From assembly GCF_988242995.1 (NCBI RefSeq), contig NZ_OZ547043.1: DNA of 64,000 nt. One strand, given 5' to 3'. The position numbers and the translations under genes are program-made. The notes beneath the pieces were generated by a model. The model searched no databases and had not been told where the DNA came from. It saw only the letters and a list, made by a program, of their open reading frames with translations. Shown here piece by piece: positions 5,781-47,520 of this stretch (position 1 is its first letter; the number at the start of each line of letters is the position of its first letter).

Positions 5781-5830
5781 TCGTTGGCCTCGGTTGATAG
5801 AAATATCGGTCGGGGCCTTCGTCTTTCTGA
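5765..5830 (+). ncRNA. sokB: putative SokB antisense RNA region (boundaries approximate)
   Basis: expected antisense to the mokB start/leader by analogy to hok/sok loci; not delimited from sequence alone. Confidence 0.25.
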
Positions 5831-7799: not shown

Positions 7800-8723
7800 T
7801 CAGAACGGCATTGATTTTCGAATAGCGTTAATCATCAACTGGCAACCAGAAGAGAACGTTGCATCTACGCGGGTCAGTATTCCAATCGGTTCGCCTGCAC
7901 CATGTCCCGGAACAGGCAGGGCCACCAGTGTGGCATGACGCAGGTCGTCTTTTACAGCGCCAGAAGGGACAAACCACACGTAATCGTATTCAACCGTAAG
8001 TTGACGAGATAGCGAAGCAGACAGCGTTTCGATACAACCCGAAGGAATTTTACATCCCTGGCTCTGCACTAATGCATCTGAATGCTGGCGTGGCGCAGTG
8101 CCTTCTGGTGATACAACGACCGGCCATTCCAGCACCCGGCTTAGCGTTACGTTCTCCTGAAGTAGCGGATGATTAGGGCGGACAACCAGCTTCAGCGATT
8201 CAAGAAACAGCAGTTCGTAATTAAGTCCGGTCATCAGTTCAGGATCTGACATCCGACCAATGCCGATATCGATTTCCCCGGTTTTTAAACCCGCAAGAAT
8301 CATAGGGTTACTCATTGTCGCAACTTGCAAGGTCGTCTCTTTTTGTTGCTGATGAAACTGACCTATAACCGAAGGTAATATCCCCAGTGCCGCAGTAGGT
8401 AGTGCACCAACCCTGACGACATCATTATTAAGACCTTCTTTACGATGAAGCGACTGTCCGGCAGTGTTGATGGCGTCAAGAACTCTGACTGCATGCGTTA
8501 AAAATTGTTCGCCGGGTAAGGTAAGTTGCGCCCCCTGACGACCACGCTCAAACAAGCGAGCGCCCGTCAGCTGCTCCAGTTCATTCAATGTCTTAGAGAG
8601 CGCAGGTTGACTCAAATTAAGGGTTTCAGCCGCGCGCCCCAAAGTTCCTTGTTGTGCGACAGCTACGAATGTATGAAGGTGGCGCAGACGGATGCGCTGA
8701 CTAAACAGACTATTTTTTTCCAT
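7800..8723 (-). CDS. ydcI: LysR-family transcriptional regulator YdcI
   Basis: ORF track gives 357 aa; native start taken at internal Met (MEKNSLFSQRIRLRHLHTFVAVAQQGTLGRAAE..., 307 aa) with LysR HTH at N-terminus. Confidence 0.85.
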   Translation of the reverse strand: MEKNSLFSQRIRLRHLHTFVAVAQQGTLGRAAETLNLSQPALSKTLNELEQLTGARLFERGRQGAQLTLPGEQFLTHAVRVLDAINTAGQSLHRKEGLNNDVVRVGALPTAALGILPSVIGQFHQQQKETTLQVATMSNPMILAGLKTGEIDIGIGRMSDPELMTGLNYELLFLESLKLVVRPNHPLLQENVTLSRVLEWPVVVSPEGTAPRQHSDALVQSQGCKIPSGCIETLSASLSRQLTVEYDYVWFVPSGAVKDDLRHATLVALPVPGHGAGEPIGILTRVDATFSSGCQLMINAIRKSMPF

Positions 8724-8939
8724 AAGCGATGTTAAAAACGAAGCGGTGTCGCTGACAAGTGAAGTTGTTTGATTATGATAACTTGATTGCAAAATATTAT
8801 TAACAATTAAAGCAATTATGTTACAGCAAAATGGATAATATTGATGTTTTCGCGGCGAGATCACAGTTTGCAAATTCTTCCCGCCAGAGTGAATGCGGTT
8901 ACCTACACTCCAGATTACTGACCACTGGAGGCAGACATT

Positions 8940-10283
8940 ATGGCGAACAGCATCACGGCGGATGAGATTCGGGAACAGTTTTCGCAGGCAATGTCAGCCA
9001 TGTACCAGCAAGAAGTTCCGCAGTACGGCACGCTGCTGGAACTGGTAGCTGATGTGAATCTGACTGTGCTGGAAAACAATCCTCAACTGCACGAAAAAAT
9101 GGTAAATGCAGACGAGCTGGCGCGACTGAATGTTGAACGTCATGGGGCAATTCGCGTTGGGACTGCACAAGAGCTTGCTACTCTTCGGCGGATGTTTGCC
9201 ATTATGGGGATGTACCCGGTGAGCTATTACGATCTCTCGCAGGCGGGAGTGCCGGTACATTCCACAGCATTTCGGCCCATTGATGATGCTTCTCTGGCGC
9301 GTAATCCCTTCCGCATTTTTACCTCATTACTCCGCCTAGAGCTTATCGAGAACGAATTTTTGCGCCAGAAAGCGGCGGAGATTCTGCGTCAGCGCGATAT
9401 CTTCACCCCACGTTGTCGACAACTGTTAGAGGAATATGAGCAGCGGGGCGGTTTTAACGAAACACAGGCACAGGAGTTTGTGCAGGAAGCCTTGGAAACG
9501 TTTCGCTGGCACCAGTCAGCAACGGTGGATGAAGTAACCTATCGCGCCTTGCATAACGAACATCGGCTGATTGCTGATGTGGTCTGTTTTCCTGGATGCC
9601 ATATCAACCACCTGACGCCACGCACGCTGGATATTGACCGGGTGCAGTCGATGATGCCTGAATGCGGGATTGAACCCAAAATTCTGATCGAAGGGCCGCC
9701 GCGCCGCGAGGTACCCATTTTACTACGCCAGACCAGCTTTAAAGCACTGGAAGAGACGGTGTTGTTTGCAGGGCAGAAACAGGGCACGCATACCGCGCGC
9801 TTTGGTGAAATAGAGCAGCGTGGTGTGGCATTAACGCCGAAAGGGCGACAACTGTATGATGATCTTCTGCGTAACGCTGGAACCGGGCAGGATAATCTCA
9901 CTCACCAAATGCATTTACAGGAAACCTTCCGCACTTTTCCTGACAGTGAGTTTTTAATGCGTCAGCAAGGGTTGGCATGGTTCCGATACCGTCTGACGCC
10001 TTCAGGTGAGGCGCATCGTCAGGCGATTCATCCCGGAGACGATCCACAGCCCTTAATTGAACGTGGTTGGATAGTGGCGCAACCCATTACCTATGAAGAT
10101 TTCTTGCCTGTTAGCGCGGCGGGGATCTTCCAGTCAAATCTGGGTAATGAAACGCAGGCACGCAGTCACGGTAATGCCAGTCGCGAAGCATTTGAGCAGG
10201 CGTTGGGCTGCCCGGTTTTGGATGAGTTCCAGCTTTATCAGGAAGCGGAAGAACGCAGTAAACGTCGCTGTGGTTTGCTTTAA
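8940..10283 (+). CDS. ydcJ: DUF1338-family protein YdcJ (putative metal-dependent dioxygenase-like enzyme)
   Basis: 447 aa, recognised as YdcJ; divergent from ydcI. Confidence 0.85.
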   Translation: MANSITADEIREQFSQAMSAMYQQEVPQYGTLLELVADVNLTVLENNPQLHEKMVNADELARLNVERHGAIRVGTAQELATLRRMFAIMGMYPVSYYDLSQAGVPVHSTAFRPIDDASLARNPFRIFTSLLRLELIENEFLRQKAAEILRQRDIFTPRCRQLLEEYEQRGGFNETQAQEFVQEALETFRWHQSATVDEVTYRALHNEHRLIADVVCFPGCHINHLTPRTLDIDRVQSMMPECGIEPKILIEGPPRREVPILLRQTSFKALEETVLFAGQKQGTHTARFGEIEQRGVALTPKGRQLYDDLLRNAGTGQDNLTHQMHLQETFRTFPDSEFLMRQQGLAWFRYRLTPSGEAHRQAIHPGDDPQPLIERGWIVAQPITYEDFLPVSAAGIFQSNLGNETQARSHGNASREAFEQALGCPVLDEFQLYQEAEERSKRRCGLL

Positions 10284-10507
10284 ATTCTGACCATCCGCCT
10301 TTGCAAAAATTTGCCTGATTTTACAAACGAATCAGGCTCATCCCATCGACATAAAAAAATTGCCGATTTATGCATATTCTCTCAGTTCAACAATTGGATT
10401 ATTAATAAATATTGTCTAGAGTGAGCGGTCATAAATAAGCACTTTCTTGCCGCTGAAAACGACCAGCGCGGGACCATTCACAACACCAGAAGGACTCACT
10501 TTCAGGT

Positions 10508-12163
10508 ATGGATCGTAGACGATTTATTAAAGGTTCAATGGCTATGGCCGCCGTGTGCGGTACCAGCGGCATTGCTTCTCTTTTTTCTCAGGCGGCATTC
10601 GCGGCAGATTCTGATATTGCCGACGGGCAAACCCAACGTTTTGACTTCTCCATTCTACAGTCAATGGCGCACGACTTAGCGCAAACAGCGTGGCGTGGTG
10701 CGCCGCGTCCGTTACCTGACACTCTGGCGACAATGACGCCGCAGGCTTATAACAGTATTCAATACGACGCCGAAAAATCGCTCTGGCATAACGTTGAGAA
10801 CCGTCAACTGGACGCTCAGTTCTTCCATATGGGAATGGGATTCCGTCGCCGCGTTCGTATGTTTTCTGTTGATCCCGCAACACATCTGGCGCGTGAAATT
10901 CACTTTCGCCCGGAGTTGTTCAAATACAACGATGCGGGTGTTGATACCAAACAATTAGAAGGGCAAAGCGATCTCGGTTTTGCCGGTTTTCGCGTGTTTA
11001 AAGCCCCCGAACTAGCGCGCCGTGATGTAGTATCATTCCTCGGTGCGAGTTATTTCCGCGCCGTTGACGACACATATCAATACGGTCTATCGGCTCGCGG
11101 CCTGGCGATCGACACTTACACCGACAGTAAAGAAGAGTTCCCCGACTTTACCGCCTTCTGGTTTGATACGGTAAAACCGGGGGCAACCACCTTTACCGTT
11201 TATGCGTTGCTCGATAGCGCCAGCATTACTGGTGCCTATAAGTTCACTATCCATTGTGAGAAAAGTCAGGTGATTATGGATGTGGAAAATCACCTGTATG
11301 CGCGCAAAGACATTAAACAGCTGGGCATTGCGCCGATGACCAGCATGTTCAGCTGCGGTACTAATGAACGTCGGATGTGCGACACCATTCATCCGCAAAT
11401 CCATGACTCTGATCGTTTGTCCATGTGGCGGGGCAACGGCGAGTGGATTTGTCGTCCGCTGAATAATCCGCAAAAATTGCAGTTCAATGCTTACACCGAC
11501 AACAACCCGAAAGGGTTTGGTTTATTGCAACTGGATCGTGATTTCTCCCATTATCAGGACATTATGGGCTGGTATAACAAACGCCCAAGTCTGTGGGTGG
11601 AGCCGCGTAACAAGTGGGGTAAGGGCACCATCGGCCTGATGGAAATCCCAACTACGGGTGAAACGCTGGATAACATTGTCTGCTTCTGGCAGCCAGAAAA
11701 AGCTGTAAAAGCGGGTGATGAGTTTGCATTCCAGTATCGTCTGTACTGGAGTGCGCAACCGCCTGTTCATTGCCCATTAGCGCGCGTTATGGCGACGCGT
11801 ACCGGCATGGGCGGTTTCCCGGAAGGTTGGGCGCCAGGTGAACACTATCCCGAAAAATGGGCGCGTCGTTTTGCCGTCGATTTCGTTGGTGGTGATCTGA
11901 AAGCTGCCGCGCCAAAAGGCATTGAGCCGGTGATTACGCTTTCCAGTGGGGAAGCGAAGCAAATCGAAATTCTCTATATTGAACCCATTGATGGTTATCG
12001 TATTCAGTTTGACTGGTATCCGACTTCGGACTCCACTGATCCGGTCGATATGCGGATGTATCTGCGTTGTCAGGGCGACGCTATCAGTGAAACATGGCTG
12101 TATCAGTATTTCCCGCCAGCGCCGGATAAACGTCAGTATGTTGACGACCGCGTGATGAGTTAA
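10508..12163 (+). CDS. opgD: glucans biosynthesis protein D (periplasmic, Tat-secreted)
   Basis: 551 aa; twin-arginine signal [32 protein letters not shown]; recognised as OpgD/MdoD. Confidence 0.95.
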
Positions 12164-12209
12164 TCGTTTTTTCTTCGGCACCTTCTTCGGGAGGTGCCGT
12201 CTGGTTGTG

Positions 12210-12925
12210 CACAGAAAACCCCCAGCTAGGCTGGGGGTTCCGGAAAGCTTTCAGCTTTGAGCCAGTTATTAAAACCCCTTTTGATTTGTTAAAACACCTT
12301 GCGGTCTGGCAACTGCAAGTGTCAAACAAGAAATCAAAAGGGGGTCCCAATGGGGGACGAAAAGAGCTTAGCGCACACCCGCTGGAACTGTAAATATCAC
12401 ATAGTTTTTGCGCCGAAATACCGAAGACTGGCGTTTTACGGAGAGAAGCGTAGGGCGATAGGCAGTATTTTGAGAAAGCTGTGTGAGTGGAAAAGCGTAC
12501 GGATTCTGGAAGCAGAGTGCTGCGCAGATCATATCCATATGCTTGTGGAAATCCCACCCAAAATGAGCGTATCCGGCTTTATGGGATATCTGAAAGGGAA
12601 AAGCAGTCTGATGCTTTACGAGCAGTTTGGGGATTTGAAATTCAAATACAGAAACAGGGAGTTCTGGTGCCGAGGGTACTATGTCGATACGGTGGGTAAG
12701 AACACGGCGAAGATACAGGACTACATAAAGCACCAGCTTGAAGAGGATAAAATGGGGGAGCAGTTATCGATTCCATATCCGGGCGGCCCGTTTACGGGCC
12801 GTAAGTAACGAAGTTGAATGCAAATGTCAGATCGTATGCGCCTGTTAGGGCGCGGCTGGTAACAGAGCCTTACAGGCGCATTTGAAAAACCTCCGGCTAT
12901 GCCGGAGGATATTTATTAACAACTG
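12210..12925 (+). mobile_element. IS200-family (IS200/IS605) insertion sequence, ~0.7 kb (ends approximate)
   Basis: contains Y1 HUH transposase gene; subterminal hairpins (CCCCCAGCTAGGCTGGGGG near left end; GCGCCTGTTAGGGCGCG and CCGGCTATGCCGG near right end) typical of IS200 ends. Confidence 0.65.
12350..12808 (+). CDS. tnpA: IS200-family transposase TnpA (Y1 HUH)
   Basis: 152 aa from MGDEKSLAHTRWNCKYHIVFAPKYRR...; HUH motif (HIHM) and catalytic Tyr region; the 169-aa track ORF has an N-terminal extension. Confidence 0.85.
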   Translation: MGDEKSLAHTRWNCKYHIVFAPKYRRLAFYGEKRRAIGSILRKLCEWKSVRILEAECCADHIHMLVEIPPKMSVSGFMGYLKGKSSLMLYEQFGDLKFKYRNREFWCRGYYVDTVGKNTAKIQDYIKHQLEEDKMGEQLSIPYPGGPFTGRK

Positions 12926-12946
12926 CATGGAGTGACTGGAGATAAG

Positions 12947-13486
12947 ATGACTGAAACGATAAAAGTAAGCGAATCACTTGAATTACATGCTGTTGCAGAA
13001 AATCACGTCACACCTCTTTATCAGTTAATCTGTAAAAATAAAACCTGGTTACAGCAGTCGCTAAACTGGCCGCAGTTTGTTCAAAGTGAAGAGGACACGC
13101 GAAAAACGGTGCAGGGCAATGTAATGTTGCATCAACGCGGATATGCCAAAATGTTCATGATTTTCAAAGAAGATGAACTTATCGGCGTTATCTCGTTTAA
13201 TCGTATTGAACCACTGAATAAAACCGCTGAAATCGGCTACTGGCTGGACGAATCTCATCAGGGGCAGGGGATCATTTCTCAGGCGCTGCAGGCATTGATT
13301 CATCATTACGCCCAGTCTGGTGAACTTAGACGCTTCGTGATCAAATGTCGGGTGGACAATGCGCAAAGCAACCAGGTCGCTTTGCGCAATGGTTTTATCC
13401 TTGAAGGTTGCCTGAAACAGGCTGAGTTCCTGAATGATGCCTATGATGATGTGAACTTATACGCGCGTATTATCGATTCACAATAA
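12947..13486 (+). CDS. rimL: ribosomal-protein-L7/L12 serine N-acetyltransferase (GNAT)
   Basis: 179 aa from [20 protein letters not shown]...; GNAT fold; recognised as RimL. Confidence 0.9.
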
Positions 13487-14458
13487 CCCTGCCAGTGGCG
13501 TTCGCGTAATGCGCTCTTCGCCGTTAATGACTTTTGGACCACGGACATGAACCGTGTCGCCATCAAAGGCTTCAACGACGGCGTGGTCGGTTAACTCCAC
13601 ATGGTTTTCAATTATCACCGCACCTGTAATACGGCTCTCACCTTGTATGACAACGTGCTCGTCGAGCAGAATCGGTCCGCCACATACCACGGCATTTCCG
13701 CCAATCAAAACATGATGTTTTAACACACAATTACCTTCCACAATGGCATATTCCGCCACCTGCGAACTGTAATGAATCGTCGGAATGGCATCTTCTTCTA
13801 TGCCAGCTTTCACCTGCGCGTGACCGTAGACTTTAGCGCAATCGCATAGCCAGACGTTGTTCTCTTCATTACCTTCAACGCTGGCAAAATCAAAAACTTC
13901 GGCGCGATGTTCAATAAAAGCATACCGGACGACGGCATCGCCATAAATTTGTGCCTGGTGAACAATACGCGAGGCGCTAACCCTTGCGCGATCATAAATT
14001 TGTAGCAGGAGTTGATGGTCGGGCGTTAAGCCTTGTGCGGCGACGATCATAGAATGTTGATCAATTAAGGCGTGACCAAATATTCTACATTGACCACAAA
14101 CTAATGAGTCACGAATGGTGACGCTGTCACTTATATATGCACCCTGGCTGATTTCACTATTATCGATCCAGACATTATCCGTTGCGTAAACCTCTCCCCA
14201 CAGCACGCTGGTGCCGGTGATACGCGTATTCCCGGATATCACCGTTCCGCCGAACGCAATAGCATTCTGGTCGTAAATCCAGCAATTTCCTTCCTGTGCT
14301 AACACCGTTTCGCGATCGATCCAGCCGCCAGCGGTTCCTGCTATCACATCGTTAAAATCGCTAATGGCGATAATCTGCCGTAATAACACACTTTTTTTAG
14401 TGCCATCTTCCTGATAACTAAAGGCTCGCTGTTCTTCACTTAGACGATATTTGCGCAT
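13478..14458 (-). CDS. ydcK: hexapeptide-repeat (left-handed beta-helix) protein YdcK
   Basis: 326 aa; repetitive hexapeptide pattern; recognised as YdcK. Confidence 0.85.
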
Positions 14459-14581
14459 AGCGTTTTCCCACAGGTGACTTACTATAACCGTAGCAAATTC
14501 TGCGGCTCTGGCTATGCTCGAGAAAATTCCATAAAATGCATTTCAAATATACTTTATAAATTAAACAAAATGAGTAAGAAG

Positions 14582-15574
14582 ATGCAGAGCGATAAAGTGC
14601 TCAATTTGCCGGCAGGCTACTTTGGTATTGTGTTGGGGACGATAGGGATGGGATTTGCCTGGCGCTATGCCAGCCAGGTTTGGCAGGTCAGCCACTGGTT
14701 AGGGGATGGGCTGGTGATTCTGGCGATGATCATCTGGGGATTATTGACTAGCGCATTTATTACCCGACTCATACGCTTTCCGCATAGCGTGCTGGCGGAA
14801 GTTCGCCATCCAGTGCTGAGCAGTTTTGTGAGTTTGTTTCCGGCAACGACGATGCTGGTGGCGATTGGTTTTGTTCCGTGGTTTCGCCCACTGGCGGTGT
14901 GCCTGTTCAGTTTTGGTGTCGTGGTGCAACTGGCTTATGCCGCATGGCAAACTGCGGGATTATGGCGCGGATCTCACCCTGAAGAAGCTACCACGCCTGG
15001 ACTGTATCTGCCGACAGTTGCCAACAACTTTATCAGCGCAATGGCCTGTGGTGCGTTGGGCTACACCGACGCCGGTCTGGTGTTTTTAGGCGCAGGCGTT
15101 TTCTCATGGCTAAGCCTTGAACCGGTGATCTTGCAGCGTCTGCGCAGTTCGGGAGAATTACCCACGGCGCTGCGGACATCACTCGGCATTCAGCTCGCTC
15201 CTGCGCTGGTGGCCTGTAGTGCCTGGCTGAGCGTCAACGGCGGCGAGGGTGACACGCTGGCGAAAATGCTTTTCGGTTATGGACTGCTGCAACTGCTGTT
15301 TATGCTACGTCTGATGCCATGGTATCTCTCCCAGCCATTTAATGCTTCATTCTGGAGTTTCTCGTTCGGCGTATCTGCACTGGCAACCACCGGTTTGCAT
15401 CTGGGGAGTGGCAGCGATAATGGATTTTTTCATACGCTGGCGGTGCCGCTGTTTATCTTTACCAATTTTATTATTGCAATACTGCTCATCCGTACTTTTG
15501 CGCTTCTGATGCAGGGAAAATTGTTAGTCAGAACCGAGCGCGCCGTTTTAATGAAAGCAGAGGACAAAGAATGA
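14582..15574 (+). CDS. tehA: tellurite resistance / C4-dicarboxylate-transporter-family membrane protein TehA
   Basis: native start at internal Met ([15 protein letters not shown]..., 330 aa); multi-TM; overlaps tehB start. Confidence 0.9.
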
Positions 15575-16164
15575 TCATTCGTGATGAAAACTATTTTACT
15601 GATAAATATGAATTAACCCGCACACACTCTGAAGTGCTGGAAGCGGTGAAAGTGGTTAAACCGGGTAAAACGCTGGATCTGGGCTGTGGCAATGGTCGTA
15701 ACAGTCTTTACCTGGCAGCCAATGGTTATGATGTTGACGCATGGGATAAAAATGCCATGAGTATCGCCAACGTCGAGCGCATTAAGTCCATTGAAAATCT
15801 GGATAATTTACACACCCGGGTCGTTGATCTGAATAACCTCACATTTGATGGACAGTACGATTTTATTATTTCGACTGTGGTGCTGATGTTCCTTGAGGCT
15901 AAAACCATCCCAGGGCTGATTGCCAATATGCAACGTTGCACTAAACCTGGCGGTTACAACCTGATTGTGGCGGCGATGGATACCGCTGATTATCCATGTA
16001 CCGTCGGCTTCCCGTTTGCCTTCAAAGAGGGGGAATTACGTCGATATTACGAAGGCTGGGAGATGGTGAAATACAATGAAGACGTCGGCGAGCTGCACCG
16101 CACCGACGCCAACGGTAATCGTATTAAACTGCGTTTCGCCACGATGCTGGCACGTAAAAAATGA
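15571..16164 (+). CDS. tehB: tellurite methyltransferase TehB (SAM-dependent)
   Basis: 197 aa; SAM-binding motif [15 protein letters not shown]; ATGA start/stop overlap with tehA. Confidence 0.95.
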
Positions 16165-16466
16165 TCCGGTAAGAACAAAGCGCGTGAAAATTCCCCACGC
16201 TGAGATGGTTTACTGTTCTTCTTTTCGGTAAGCATATTTTTTATCGAAGGGATGTGAAATTAATCACAGTAGTCGAAGTTTTTTAGCCGCTTAACTTACT
16301 GAAATTTAACTACTGATGATTGACTTAGCCCCTTTTTCGGCATTGACTATGTCGTCTGAAAAGGGGCTAAAAAATTTATTTTCACCAACACTTTTTTTGC
16401 CACAACACGAAGCGGCGCTTTTTGCTATAACTTAGAAAGTAATATAATCATCTCAGGAAACTATTC

Positions 16467-17135
16467 ATGCGTACCACATCATTTGCGAAAGTTGCAGCTT
16501 TATGCGGCTTGTTGGCTCTGTCTGGTTGTGCCTCTAAAATCACCCAGCCAGATAAATATTCTGGTTTTTTAAACAATTACTCTGATTTAAAAGAAACAAC
16601 CTCAGCAACAGGTAAACCTGTTTTACGTTGGGTAGACCCGAGTTTTGATCAAAGCAAATATGACAGCATCGTCTGGAACCCAATCACTTATTATCCGGTA
16701 CCGAAACCTTCAACCCAGGTAGGGCAGAAAGTTCTGGATAAAATTTTGAACTATACCAACACCGAAATGAAAGAAGCGATAGCGCAGCGTAAACCACTGG
16801 TTACCAACGCTGGGCCGCGTAGTCTGATTTTCCGTGGGGCCATTACCGGTGTAGATACCAGCAAAGAAGGGCTGCAATTCTATGAAGTGGTTCCTGTTGC
16901 ATTAGTGGTTGCGGGGACGCAAATGGCTACAGGCCACCGTACCATGGATACTCGCCTCTATTTTGAAGGTGAGCTGATTGATGCAGCGACTAATAAACCG
17001 GTTATCAAAGTCGTTCGTCAGGGCGAAGGTAAAGACCTGAATAACGAAAGTACGCCAATGGCTTTCGAAAATATTAAACAAGTTATTGATGACATGGCGA
17101 CCGATGCCACCATGTTTGACGTTAACAAAAAGTAG
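16467..17135 (+). CDS. ydcL: lipoprotein YdcL (DUF3313)
   Basis: 222 aa; lipobox LALSGC after signal peptide. Confidence 0.9.
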   Translation: MRTTSFAKVAALCGLLALSGCASKITQPDKYSGFLNNYSDLKETTSATGKPVLRWVDPSFDQSKYDSIVWNPITYYPVPKPSTQVGQKVLDKILNYTNTEMKEAIAQRKPLVTNAGPRSLIFRGAITGVDTSKEGLQFYEVVPVALVVAGTQMATGHRTMDTRLYFEGELIDAATNKPVIKVVRQGEGKDLNNESTPMAFENIKQVIDDMATDATMFDVNKK

Positions 17136-17143
17136 TTCCAGAC

Positions 17144-17170
17144 GCGCCATCGTTAGATGGCGCTTTTTAT
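17144..17170. terminator. bidirectional rho-independent terminator between ydcL and ydcO
   Basis: hairpin GCGCCATC-GTTA-GATGGCGC followed by TTTTTATTA. Confidence 0.65.
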
Positions 17171-18342
17171 TATCGGTTTCTGTTAGCGATTAAATTCAAC
17201 ACCACGTAACAAACGCCTCCGGCAATTAATCCCCAAAACGCAGAACCAATCCCGACCAGCGTCAATCCACTTGCCGTTACCAGAAATGCCACCACCGCCG
17301 CGTCGCGCTCACGCTCATTATGCAGCGCCTGATACAAACTGCCGCCAATGGTACTCAACAGCGCCAGACCTGCCAGCATCTGGATCCAACTTACGGGCAG
17401 GGCAGCCATCATCCCGGTAATGGCACTACCAAACAGACCTGCGAGCAAATAGAAAATGCCTGCAACGGCAGCGGCCAGCCAACGTTGATCTTTATCCGGA
17501 TGCGCTTCCGGGCTTTGGCAAATAGCCGCGGTGATTGCCGCAATACCGACGGAATAAACGCCGAAAGGGGAAAAAACCAGTGCCAGCAATCCAGTAAATA
17601 CAATTAATGGCGAAACAGGAGCTGAATATCCGGCGGCTTTCATTGCTGCGATACCCGGTGCGTTTTGCGATGCCATCGTCACCAGAAAAAGGGGGAGTGC
17701 AACGCTCAGGCTGTGAGCAAACGAAAAATCAGGGCTAATATAAGTGGGGAGAACGGGTTTAAAGACAACATCAGTTGTGACAACGTCACCTTGCGCGATA
17801 ACGATCACGACCCCAATAATCATCGCGGCAATTACCGCATAGCGCGGCGCAACGGCCTTGGTTGCCAGCCATACCAGCAACATACCTCCACACAACGTAG
17901 ATTGACCATCCAGACTGGCAAACGCCTGTAAACCAAAGCGTAATAAAATCCCGGCAAGCATTGCCGCCGCAAGCGAGTGCGGAATAATGCGCATCAGACG
18001 AGCAAAGAGTCCCGTTATGCCGCAGAGGACTATTAACGCGTTGGTGACAATAAAAACGCCGATGGCTTCGTTAAGTGTTAGTCCCTGTAATCCGGTGACC
18101 AACAAAGCCGCGCCAGGCGTTGACCATGCGGTGAGAACAGGTACGCGATACCATAATGTCAGAGTCAGCGTACTGACGCCCATTGCCAGCCCCAGCGCCG
18201 TCATCCAGCCAGAGATTTGTGTAGTGGTGGCTCCGGCGACAATCGCTGCTTGCCAGATTATTGCCGCTGAACTGGCGTAGCCAATTAATACCGCCAGAAA
18301 CCCCGCCAGTAGCGTGGGTGGAGGAATAGAAAACAGACGCAT
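17170..18342 (-). CDS. ydcO: BenE-family membrane transporter YdcO
   Basis: native start at internal Met (MRLFSIPPPTLLAGFLAVLIGY..., 391 aa); polytopic membrane protein. Confidence 0.85.
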   Translation of the reverse strand: MRLFSIPPPTLLAGFLAVLIGYASSAAIIWQAAIVAGATTTQISGWMTALGLAMGVSTLTLTLWYRVPVLTAWSTPGAALLVTGLQGLTLNEAIGVFIVTNALIVLCGITGLFARLMRIIPHSLAAAMLAGILLRFGLQAFASLDGQSTLCGGMLLVWLATKAVAPRYAVIAAMIIGVVIVIAQGDVVTTDVVFKPVLPTYISPDFSFAHSLSVALPLFLVTMASQNAPGIAAMKAAGYSAPVSPLIVFTGLLALVFSPFGVYSVGIAAITAAICQSPEAHPDKDQRWLAAAVAGIFYLLAGLFGSAITGMMAALPVSWIQMLAGLALLSTIGGSLYQALHNERERDAAVVAFLVTASGLTLVGIGSAFWGLIAGGVCYVVLNLIANRNR

Positions 18343-18433
18343 AGTCACCTCGTGCGTTATAACGTACAGGTACCGTAGCATTTGTCCGTTATAACGCACA
18401 AGTGATAAACTTCCGTTTTGCCGGAGGAGTCGC

Positions 18434-18970
18434 ATGGAAAATCTCGCTCGCTTTTTATCCACCACACTTAAACAACTACGTCAGCATCGCGGCTGGAGTC
18501 TTTCGCGACTGGCAGAAGCGACGGGCGTTTCTAAAGCGATGTTAGGGCAGATTGAGCGTAATGAATCCAGCCCGACGGTCGCGACATTATGGAAAATTGC
18601 CACCGGGTTGAACGTGCCATTTTCAACATTTATTTCTCCGCCGCAGTCCGCTACGCCTTCAGTTTATGATCCACAACGGCAGGCGATGGTGATCACTTCG
18701 CTGTTTCCTTATGATCCACAACTCTGCTTTGAACACTTCTCGATTCAGATGGCACCTGGTGCAATAAGTGAATCGACGCCCCATGAGAAGGGAGTAATCG
18801 AACATGTTGTCGTCATTGATGGGCAACTTGATCTGTGCGTTGATGGTGAATGGCAGAGCCTTAATTGTGGAAAAGGCGCTCGATTTGCTGCAGACGTTAC
18901 GCATGTCTATCGTAATGGTGGGGAGCAAATCGTACATTTTCATTCCCTCATCCATTACCCGCGCAGTTAA
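18434..18970 (+). CDS. ydcN: XRE-family HTH plus cupin-domain transcriptional regulator YdcN
   Basis: 178 aa; N-terminal HTH (LRQHRGWSLSRLAEATGVSKAMLGQIERNESSPT), C-terminal cupin. Confidence 0.9.
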   Translation: MENLARFLSTTLKQLRQHRGWSLSRLAEATGVSKAMLGQIERNESSPTVATLWKIATGLNVPFSTFISPPQSATPSVYDPQRQAMVITSLFPYDPQLCFEHFSIQMAPGAISESTPHEKGVIEHVVVIDGQLDLCVDGEWQSLNCGKGARFAADVTHVYRNGGEQIVHFHSLIHYPRS

Positions 18971-19042
18971 GCGGGAAAACTATTTCGCAACGTCGCGCTT
19001 GTGGCTAAAATAGCCGCCATTTTTCAGCTACTGGATAAGAAA

Positions 19043-39329: not shown

Positions 39330-40685
39330 AGGGCAGAGCGGTAGCGTATCAGGGAAAAAGCATGAAAGCCCGCGCCCCACAAGACTTTGGTGAATGATGA
39401 ATTTTTAAATCGCGACATTACTTTTATCGTAAAACCCATCATGTTGATCTTTTTTTTCGATCAATTTGACCATCTTATTTCAGTGTGATCTTATCCTTTC
39501 TTTTTGATGGATAGCACACCATGAACGGACTAAGCCTTTTGGATCAAATTTCAATTATTCACGATTATCGCCAGTCCTGGAAAACCAGTTACAGCCTGGC
39601 GGATATCCTTTTTCTGACGATCACCGCCATTATCGGTGGCGCTGAAGGATGGGAAGAAATTGCTGATTTTGGTGAGGAGCATCTGGAATGGTTACGCCTG
39701 TATGGTGATTTTGAAAATGGCACCCCCTCCCATCACACGATTGCCCGAGTGATGGGAATGATTTCAGCAAAACAATTACAGCCCCTTTTTATCCAGTAGA
39801 TGAAGGACTGTCACACGTTGTCTGAAGGCTCTGTTGTGGCGATTGATGGTAAGTCATTACGGGGTACTTACGATAAATCGAAACGTAATGCCGTGATCCA
39901 TAGGGTCAGTGCTTTTAGCGCAGAAAATCGTCTGGTTTTGGGGCAGGTGAAAACAGGGGCAAAATCGAATGAGATAACGGCGATCCCGGAACGGCTCCAG
40001 TTGCTGGAATTAAAAGGGTGTCTGGTCACGCTGGATGCAATGGGTTGCCAGCATATAATCGCCCGTGAAATTCTGAAAAAGAAAGCCGGTTACCTGCTGG
40101 CGCTGAAAGGAAATCAGGGAAAATTAGCGGAGGCGTTTGATAACGGGTACTCGCCGACAATGTGGCTGGGTGAGAGGTATGACAGTTACAGCACGCAGGA
40201 AAAAGGGCATGGACGGGAAGATACACGATGCTGCATTGTGAGCCATGATTTAACCGCTCTGGGTGATTTAGCTTATGAATGGTCAGAGCTGAGCACGATA
40301 GGAATAGTGCTGGCGAGCAGACAGGAAGGAGAAACAGCGGTGAAATCAGAGAAGTGTATTCTTCGCTACTACATAAGTTCGGTGACGCTTACGGCGAAAG
40401 AACTCCTGGAAGCAACACGAGCACACTGGTCGGTAGAAAATCAACTGCACTGGCGACTTGATATGGGGATGCGGGAAGATGAATGCCAGATTGTTCGTGG
40501 AGAAGCGGGAGAAAATCTGGCAGTTTGTCGACATATCGCGATGAATTTACTGACCGCAGAGAATAGCTTTAAAGCGGGTATTAAACGCAAGCAAAAGCGG
40601 GCAGGACGTAAGAATGAATACCTTTCTCTAATCCTTGCTGGCTGCGGGCCTTCATGATTTCGCCCTGCGGTTAGAGGTTAATTAT
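39330..40685 (+). mobile_element. H-repeat (ISAs1-family) element, copy 1 (ends approximate)
   Basis: ~100-bp conserved upstream block (ATGAAAGCCCGCGCCCCACAAG...CATCATGTTG) shared with the second copy at ~46100; transposase-like ORF; similar sequence just after both stop codons. Confidence 0.6.
39521..40657 (+). pseudogene. H-repeat-associated (ISAs1-family) transposase interrupted by in-frame amber codon
   Basis: 92-aa and 285-aa ORFs are in the same frame, separated only by TAG at 39797-39799; combined 378 codons, same length as the intact paralog at 46358..47494. Confidence 0.75.
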
Positions 40686-46064: not shown

Positions 46065-47520
46065 GGGTGTCCGGCGTATAGCAGACATCAGGATAAAAGT
46101 ATGAAAGCCCACGCCCCACAAGGCTTTACCGGATGATGAGTTTTTAAACTACGACATTACTTTTACAGTAAAATCCATCATGTTGGTATTTTCTCTCGAA
46201 CAATTTGACGATCCACGGAAAGATCACGTAACGCTGCTTTTTTGTACTAGACAATTCGCATTTTATGTTTAACAATTGAGATATTCCTCATTACCTGAAG
46301 CTGTTTTTTATTGCGTATACATGATCAAATACTCCTTACATAATTAAGGAGAACAAAATGGAACTTAAAAAATTGATGGAACATATTTCTATTATCCCCG
46401 ATTACAGACAAGCCTGGAAAGTGGAACATAAATTTTCGGATATTCTACTGTTGACTATTTGTGCCGTTATTTCGGGTGCAGAAGGCTGGGAAGATATAGA
46501 GGATTTTGGGGAAACACATCTCGATTTTTTGAAGCAATATGGTGATTTTGATAATGGTATTCCTGTTCACGATACCATTGCCAGAGTTGTATCCTGTATC
46601 AGTCCTGCAAAATTTCACGAGTGCTTTATTAACTGGATGCGTGACTGCCATTCTTCAGATGATAAAGACGTCATCGCAATTGATGGAAAAACACTCCGGC
46701 ATTCTTATGACAAGAGTCGCCGCAAGGGAGCGATTCATGTCATTAGTGCGTTCTCAACAATGCACAGTCTGGTTATCGGACAGATCAGGACGGATGAGAA
46801 ATCCAATGAGATTACAGCTATTCCAGAACTTCTTAACATGCTGGATATTAAAGGAAAAATCATCACAACTGATGCGATGGGTTGCCAGAAAGATATTGCA
46901 GAGAAGATACAAAAACAGGGCGGTGATTATTTATTCGCTGTAAAAGGAAACCAGGGGCGGCTAAATAAAGCCTTCGAGGAAAAATTTCCGCTGAAAGAAT
47001 TAAATAATCCAGAGCATGACAGTTACGCAATTAGTGAAAAGAGTCACGGCAGAGAAGAAATCCGTCTTCACATTGTTTGCGATGTCCCTGATGAACTTAT
47101 TGATTTCACGTTTGAATGGAAAGGTCTGAAGAAATTATGCGTGGCAGTCTCCTTTCGGTCAATAATAGCAGAACAAAAGAAAGAGCCAGAAATGACGGTC
47201 AGATATTATATCAGTTCTGCTGATTTAACCGCAGAGAAGTTCGCCACAGCAATCCGAAACCACTGGCACGTGGAGAATAAGCTGCACTGGCGTCTGGACG
47301 TGGTAATGAATGAAGACGACTGCAAAATAAGAAGAGGAAATGCAGCAGAATTATTTTCAGGGATACGGCACATGGCTATTAATATTTTAACGAATGATAA
47401 GATATTTAAGGCAGGGTTAAGACGTAAGATGCGAAAAGCAGCCATGGACAGAAACTACCTGGCGTCAGTCCTTGCTGGGTGCGGGCTTTCGTAATCTTGC
47501 CCTGCGCCAAAGATTCCATA
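46065..47520 (+). mobile_element. H-repeat (ISAs1-family) element, copy 2 (ends approximate)
   Basis: conserved upstream block homologous to copy 1; intact transposase ORF. Confidence 0.6.
46358..47494 (+). CDS. ydcC: H-repeat-associated (ISAs1-family) transposase, intact (YdcC-like)
   Basis: 378 aa; [52 protein letters not shown]...; clearly related to but diverged from the copy at 39521..40657. Confidence 0.85.

Follow-up and report, generated by a model that had tools for sequence, protein, structure and literature searches.

We compare the interval between opgD and rimL in a stretch of 64,000 nucleotides (NCBI RefSeq assembly GCF_988242995.1, contig NZ_OZ547043.1; the whole stretch is hereafter the window) with complete E. 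coli genomes, and find that one intact copy of the insertion sequence IS200 stands there and that the small gene ydcH is gone. The left junction of this copy is of the type seen where an IS200 follows the opgD terminator (site 1; configuration B), and its right junction is of the type seen where an IS200 stands at the end of the former ydcH terminator T-run (site 2; configuration A). A site-1 left junction and a site-2 right junction on one and the same IS are the footprint expected of two direct copies that have recombined. The arrangement in the window probably arose from configuration A, through a second insertion at site 1 and recombination between the two copies. Neither the element nor this kind of rearrangement is new, and the allele is a rare one.

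An intact IS200 between opgD and rimL

The gap between the two genes measures 783 bp (12164-12946), and 91% of it is a 711-bp IS200. A preliminary description, made from the letters of the window, had placed an IS200-like element of approximately 0.7 kb, with a Y1 HUH transposase and hairpin-rich ends, across nearly the whole interval; the measured extent agrees with this, as do the Pfam, PDB and Rfam matches and the predicted folds. The features of the interval and its neighbours are collected in Table 1. The tnpA product matches the Pfam family Y1_Tnp (PF01797) at 7.9e-37 and over its full length (2-121 of 121), and it matches the solved Y1 transposases 2EC2, 2F4F, IS608 (2A6M/2VJV) and ISDra2 (2XM3); its HUH motif (DHIHMLV) and C-terminal tyrosine (QDYIKHQ) align with the motifs of 2EC2. 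Its identity to the TnpA of IS200C is 97%. Upstream of tnpA, the Rfam family STnc490 (RF01405) matches over its full length, 1-124, with 146.4 bits (E=2.1e-31), where the gathering score is 56. The function of STnc490/art200 in the IS200 5'UTR, together with a stem-loop that occludes the Shine-Dalgarno sequence, has been described (PMC4513863).

Both ends of the element fold. A hairpin with a 10-bp stem lies 10 nt inside the left end, at a position that corresponds to nucleotides 12-34 of IS200, a bidirectional terminator (PMC4513863). The right-end hairpin lies 9 nt inside its end and has the same architecture with paired base changes; with the terminal ATATTTATT it is terminator-like on both strands in a terminator scan. 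The element carries tnpA only, and 711 bp leave no space for a second gene. As to terminal inverted repeats, no inverted repeat pair of at least 60 nt was reported in the 64-kb window, and no second IS200 copy was found in it. With its open reading frame and both ends intact, the segment 12207-12917 is an ordinary intact IS200 (IS200/IS605 family, IS200 group). In sequence it is identical to the copy that strain 746 carries between ydcH and rimL, and it differs from the sampled IS200C copies at 28 of 711 positions.

All IS200 copies at the opgD-rimL locus have the + orientation. GC skew in the window is positive in 6 of eight 8-kb bins (cumulative +0.34), and in MC1061 the locus is found at 1.42 Mb, on the + strand. 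Indirectly, these observations place the top strand of IS200 on the G-rich + strand and hence on the lagging-strand template, which fits the bias of IS200/IS605 elements, whose top strand favours the lagging-strand template and which target replication forks (PMC5027513).

Table 1. Features of the opgD-rimL interval, in window coordinates; a slash marks a junction.
Feature	Position	Strand	Basis
opgD (mdoD) CDS, upstream neighbour	10508..12163	+	ORF list; Pfam MdoG 1.8e-180; opgD annotation in homologous records
opgD intrinsic-terminator-like hairpin (12176-12199) with tail TCTGGTT; site 1	12176..12206	+	DNA fold, 10-bp stem
Deletion junction, 354 bp missing relative to strain 746 (AAACACGATCC...ydcH...GCGGCTTTTTT)	12206..12207	.	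Alignment; blastn against 746
IS200 element, 711 bp	12207..12917	+	Ends set by alignment with K-12 and 746
IS200 left-end subterminal hairpin (AACCCCCAGC-TAG-GCTGGGGGTT)	12217..12239	+	Fold; presumed TnpA-binding hairpin
STnc490, IS200 5'UTR / art200 region	12217..12340	+	Rfam RF01405
tnpA, intact 152-aa Y1 HUH transposase	12350..12808	+	Pfam PF01797; PDB homologues
Imperfect palindrome inside IS200 right end (ATGCGCCTGT ... ACAGGCGCAT)	12835..12881	+	DNA fold 12810-12925, z = -4.35
IS200 right-end subterminal hairpin (CCTCCGGC-TAT-GCCGGAGG, 12890-12908) with terminal ATATTTATT	12890..12917	+	Fold; terminator scan
Native sequence of 29 bp from site 2 to the rimL start, including GGAG ribosome-binding site	12918..12946	+	K-12 alignment
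rimL (L7/L12-serine acetyltransferase), downstream neighbour	12947..13486	+	Pfam GNAT families; homologous records
For comparison, right junction of an IS200 at site 1 that is followed by ydcH: GGAGGATATTTATT/AAACACGATCCCGC			

Nearest relatives and the two junctions

The complete genomes closest to the window are those of strains 746, CE2050, ECamp083, MS14384 and SCU-109, and all five have configuration A, that is, the order opgD-ydcH-IS200-rimL. SCU-109 has an additional IS100, which interrupts the right-end region of its IS200 (L008, 4133-6088). RefSeq labels this IS200 variant only as 'IS200/IS605 family transposase'. In these genomes the IS sits directly after the ydcH terminator T-run, with the junctions GCGGCTTTTTT/GTGCACAG on the left and ATATTTATT/AACAACTGC on the right. 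Alignment of the window with 746 (blastn) is identical at every base from 10703 to 19041 save for 354 bp, which 746 carries between GTCTGGTT and the left end of the IS. Because the configuration-A relatives keep ydcH and are otherwise identical here, the IS200 insertion itself removed nothing, and the ydcH deletion is a separate event, later than the insertion at site 2. The preliminary description had suggested insertion with deletion. Both of its components hold, since IS200 is present and ydcH is gone, but their union in a single event does not, as relatives keep ydcH beside the same IS200.

The left junction has its counterpart in configuration B, where an IS200C follows the opgD terminator and an intact ydcH comes after it. 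In the window this junction reads GTCTGGTT/GTGCAC (at greater length, GTCTGGTT/GTGCACAG), and it matches the configuration-B junction base for base. Insertions of IS200C at exactly site 1 with ydcH intact behind them are found in EC556, EC571, EC581, UPEC69, B20105 and several others, and FDAARGOS_448 has an IS200C at the same base. The occupied sequence at site 1 is that of K-12 with 711 bp added and nothing duplicated or lost, and in the comparison of occupied with empty sites the difference is exactly 711 bp, likewise without duplication or loss of the target. The opgD terminator-like hairpin and its tail are identical in sequence in the K-12 alignment. Site 1 has been used in lineages that differ in flanking SNPs and in IS200 copy number, and both junction sites are real targets that IS200 has used independently. 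Since TT is shared by the two endpoints, the deletion junction is ambiguous by 2 nt in position, as are the boundaries of the element.

Around this interval, the relation of the window to 746 is uneven. From 8337 to 10702 there are 31 SNPs in 2.4 kb (the end of ydcI, hglS and the start of opgD), none from 10703 to 19041, and SNPs resume at 19042 and become dense from about 21850. These blocks have the look of patches brought in by recombination, the background being otherwise clonal. At about 5793-5795, between trg and hokB, the window is without an IS150 of about 1.44 kb that 746 and the closest relatives carry there, and the flanks are otherwise collinear. In the genomes that share the YdcK protein allele of the window (L147-L149, L152, L153), the opgD-ydcH-rimL locus is empty; among genomes carrying this allele the site-2 insertion may, judging from these empty loci, be recent. 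In APEC-type genomes (64.1, E7, APEC17 and others), an IS3-family element adjoins the left end of an IS200C at the rimL-proximal site (L007, 1744-3140).

Loss of ydcH

The K-12 derivative MC1061 has the order opgD-ydcH-rimL without any IS. This alignment bears out the statement in the preliminary description that K-12 carries ydcH between opgD and rimL: the gene normally lies here and the element is absent from this site in K-12. That ydcH is missing from the interval was also read correctly, as neither DNA nor protein similarity to ydcH was found anywhere in the 64-kb window. The lost 354 bp comprise ydcH, its upstream region and its terminator, and the product, YdcH, is a 74-aa protein with the Pfam mark DUF465. 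We find the 354-bp segment in 5,412 of 5,426 complete E. coli genomes (99.7%), so that loss of ydcH is rare.

The loss of YdcH would be the direct consequence of the deletion. At this locus only 354 bp separate the window from its nearest relatives, so that the source, as a natural ydcH-null strain, could be used for a phenotype comparison. The practical value is small.

A second IS200-bounded deletion at the same locus

An analogous deletion has occurred at this locus elsewhere in the species. Strain 7/2 carries IS200C only between ydcL and ydcO (site 3), and B20105 carries it both after opgD and between ydcL and ydcO, with both copies in the + orientation. In FDAARGOS_448 the order is opgD-IS200C-ydcO and about 5.3 kb are gone, including ydcH, rimL, ydcK, tehAB and ydcL; the same allele is also present in KY 1497, PEC1020/1021 and Survcare321. 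The right junction of this deletion allele is the right junction of site 3 in B20105. Strains 7/2, B20105 and FDAARGOS_448 belong to one lineage by their common SNP pattern, and B20105 and FDAARGOS_448 are the before and after of an IS200-to-IS200 deletion that used the same site-1 copy.

The opgD-IS200C-ydcO allele resembles the window in having its left junction after the opgD terminator, in retaining one IS200 and in having lost ydcH. It differs in the length removed (about 5.3 kb), in the IS variant (IS200C), in lineage, and in that a two-copy parent, B20105, is known.

Origin of the opgD-IS200-rimL arrangement

In the history that we favour, an IS200 would have inserted in an ancestor just after the ydcH terminator T-run, 29 bp upstream of rimL, to give configuration A. 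A second copy of the same IS200 variant, oriented like the first, would then have entered directly behind the opgD terminator. Homologous recombination between the 711-bp direct repeats, either intrachromosomal or by unequal sister exchange, would have eliminated one of the two copies together with the 354 bp that separated them, leaving opgD-IS200-rimL. The event is assigned to the 746 lineage because the IS, like the flank on either side of it, has the 746 type and not the IS200C or configuration-B type. Two parental copies of this kind would be identical and their recombination would leave no internal trace, so that the sequence cannot separate homologous recombination from a joining catalysed by the transposase. 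Queries spanning the junctions found neither the arrangement of the window nor the intermediate opgD-IS200-ydcH-IS200-rimL in 5,426 complete E. coli genomes. Exact-protein look-ups with RimL, HglS and YdcK in a larger assembly collection likewise gave neither; they returned only empty sites, configurations A and B, and configuration A with the added IS100, and the alleles are widespread. IS200 is reported to transpose very rarely (PMC4513863), and a second hop only 354 bp away is therefore an extra assumption, against which stands the use of site 1 in differing lineages.

This assumption is spared if the transposase of the resident IS200 made the deletion in one step, by cleaving single-stranded site 1 and its own left end and joining the opgD flank to the element while ydcH left as a single-stranded circle. 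Such a route requires no second IS copy, both endpoints are positions that TnpA would be expected to cleave, both sites are on the same strand and on the lagging-strand template, and the failure to find the two-copy intermediate in the 5,426 complete genomes would be explained. In the IS608 paradigm, however, guide bases beside the left-end hairpin serve to recognise both the target and the left cleavage site; two guide-dependent cleavages would be needed here, and configuration A offers only one left end. The literature searched gave no report of such adjacent deletions for the IS200/IS605 family, and the deletion in FDAARGOS_448 has a known two-copy parent, so the simpler route demonstrably exists. 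We regard a one-step deletion as unlikely, and are a little more doubtful still of the specific claim that TnpA itself deleted ydcH by joining the opgD-terminator target to its own left-end cleavage site. If it were true, an IS200-group element could delete the DNA from its left end to the next upstream terminator without a second copy or RecA, and, given the strong homing of the group to the 3' ends of intrinsic terminators, IS200 would be a specific remover of short terminator-to-terminator gene cassettes.

Import rather than local rearrangement would also join the two junctions, if a configuration-A chromosome took up a fragment with configuration B and one of the crossovers fell within IS200. 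Natural configuration-B alleles are known, and the window is a mosaic relative to 746, with the 31 SNPs of 8337-10702 and many beyond 19042, so recombination has acted in this region. On the other side, the window shows no difference from 746 in the 1.5 kb of opgD flank (10703-12206) or anywhere in the IS, and every sampled configuration-B genome differs from it at 19-22 sites of the flank and about 28 of the IS. The sampled configuration-B genomes are accordingly rejected as donors, the opgD flank and IS being of the 746 type; the donor would have to belong to the same lineage and carry configuration B without having been sampled, for which the site-1 insertion is needed again, and we think this quite improbable. 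Slightly less probable again is an artefact of assembly, in which a true IS200-ydcH-IS200 structure had its identical 711-bp repeats collapsed and the 354-bp piece dropped. Short-read pipelines can lose a 354-bp piece bounded by a multi-copy repeat, and the arrangement is absent from the 5,426 complete genomes; yet a 64-kb sequence that crosses a multi-copy IS unbroken points to long reads or finishing, by which a tandem unit of 1.07 kb would be resolved, and the uncollapsed structure is just as absent from those genomes. Replication slippage independent of IS200, on the 2-bp TT microhomologies beside the two terminator hairpins, has in its favour that TT is shared at both endpoints and that each endpoint adjoins a stable hairpin. 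But 2 bp is minimal homology, the endpoints would have to equal by chance the exact left boundary of the IS and the exact insertion base of IS200C, and deletions with these endpoints are absent from IS200-free backgrounds among the 5,426 genomes, all of which leaves slippage very improbable. We give almost no credence to the earlier reading of a single IS200 insertion that removed ydcH at the same moment. Against K-12 alone the product does look like 354 bp replaced by 711 bp, but insertions at both sites are plain additions of 711 bp with no target DNA lost, and the nearest relatives share the right junction with ydcH intact.

The stepwise history through configuration A and a second insertion at site 1 is also a reminder for annotation that an IS with an apparent 'replacement' beside it can be the result of two insertions followed by recombination.

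IS200-group elements at the ends of intrinsic terminators

Sites 1, 2 and 3 all lie at the end of a hairpin with a T-tail on the + strand, and all pass a test for a hairpin followed by a T-run. For a wider view of target choice, one genome per species was scanned for the exact 24-nt left-end hairpin and 118 distinct left flanks were extracted (L012-L131). A GC-rich hairpin with a T-run is present in 98 of the 118 flanks (83%) compared with 26 of 3000 positions drawn at random from these loci (0.9%), and 103 of the 118 end in TT. This excess over random positions shows that the 3' end of intrinsic terminators is where elements of the IS200 group insert, and terminator-like hairpins of this kind appear, from flanking sequence, to be their target. 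A literature search for an explicit statement that IS200 targets terminators gave only a 2025-26 preprint, in which terminator-like sequences are enriched just upstream of IS200/IS605 elements; the preprint reads these upstream terminators as limiting transposase expression and not as target choice.

The exact 24-nt left-end hairpin is common to Yersinia, Vibrio, Brenneria, Edwardsiella and Pluralibacter, and it also occurs in metagenome-assembled genomes labelled Oxalobacter, Bacillota, Peptococcaceae, Mailhella, Desulfovibrio, Saccharibacteria and Elusimicrobiaceae. Among the groups that share the hairpin, the outermost 10 nt of the left end are not the same. In Yersinia pestis NCTC5923 there are head-to-tail dimers of IS1541 with left-end hairpins 710 bp apart (L077, 2660-3393; L079, 12604-13337). 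The left flank of the second copy in such dimers (flanks L076 and L123) is the right-end hairpin of the first copy with ATATTTATT, so that the right end of IS1541 itself serves as a terminator-like target.

Position of the element relative to rimL

From the right end of IS200 it is 29 bp downstream to the ATG of rimL and about 19 bp to its GGAG, not far from the estimate of roughly 25 bp to the ribosome-binding site in the preliminary description, which also raised an influence on rimL expression. Such an effect is plausible from the sequence, and it would not be specific to the window, since the identical IS200-rimL junction occurs in at least 15 genomes in which ydcH is intact. The T-run of the ydcH terminator stops at this same point in K-12, and any native rimL promoter must therefore lie further upstream. 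An element with terminator hairpins at both ends would thus cut rimL off from any upstream promoter, and would already do so in configuration A; in the window the ydcH region is missing too.

A simple scan for the sigma-70 consensus found no promoter-like site in 12100-13000 of the window or in the opgD-ydcH-rimL interval of K-12. The same scanner missed the ydcH terminator, because its stem runs into the T-run. A literature search on ydcH together with rimL gave nothing useful.

Comparison with known systems

The element in the window is closest to IS200 and IS200C of Salmonella and E. coli. It shares with them its size (711 bp against a published 707 bp), the single tnpA, the left-end terminator hairpin, the Shine-Dalgarno stem-loop, STnc490/art200 and the lack of a target duplication. 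Relative to IS200C it is a sequence variant (28 of 711 positions), with no functional difference evident. IS1541 of Yersinia pestis has an identical 24-nt left-end hairpin and the same type of left flank, a hairpin plus T-run, and it expresses the same STnc490 RNA (PMC4513863). It differs in the left-end tip (GTGCCCAGAA against GTGCACAGAA), in its much higher copy number and in its head-to-tail dimers.

IS608 and ISDra2 are the paradigm of 'peel and paste' single-strand transposition. Their Y1 HUH transposases are homologous to that of the window (E about 1e-19 and 1e-16, respectively), and likewise shared are subterminal hairpins, insertion in one orientation 3' of a short target, and the top strand on the lagging-strand template. 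The two elements have tnpB in addition to tnpA and insert at the targets TTAC and TTGAT; unlike these, the target of the window IS200 appears to be the T-tract end of a terminator hairpin.

For the rearrangement, an E. coli mutation-accumulation study describes deletions by recombination between homologous IS copies (PMC5009759); like the deletion in the window, these are IS-bounded and keep one copy. The IS200-bounded deletions at the present locus are known from genome comparison alone. Taken over all genomes, the locus forms a compact natural series that runs from the empty site, through insertions of IS200 at one or the other of two terminators, to two different deletions bounded by IS200. 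This series shows that the reputedly dormant IS200 is still reshaping intergenic regions of E. coli and that its targets are the ends of intrinsic terminators.

Elsewhere in the window there is a 127-nt direct repeat (39348-39474 and 46087-46213), with 83% identity between copies that lie 6.7 kb apart.
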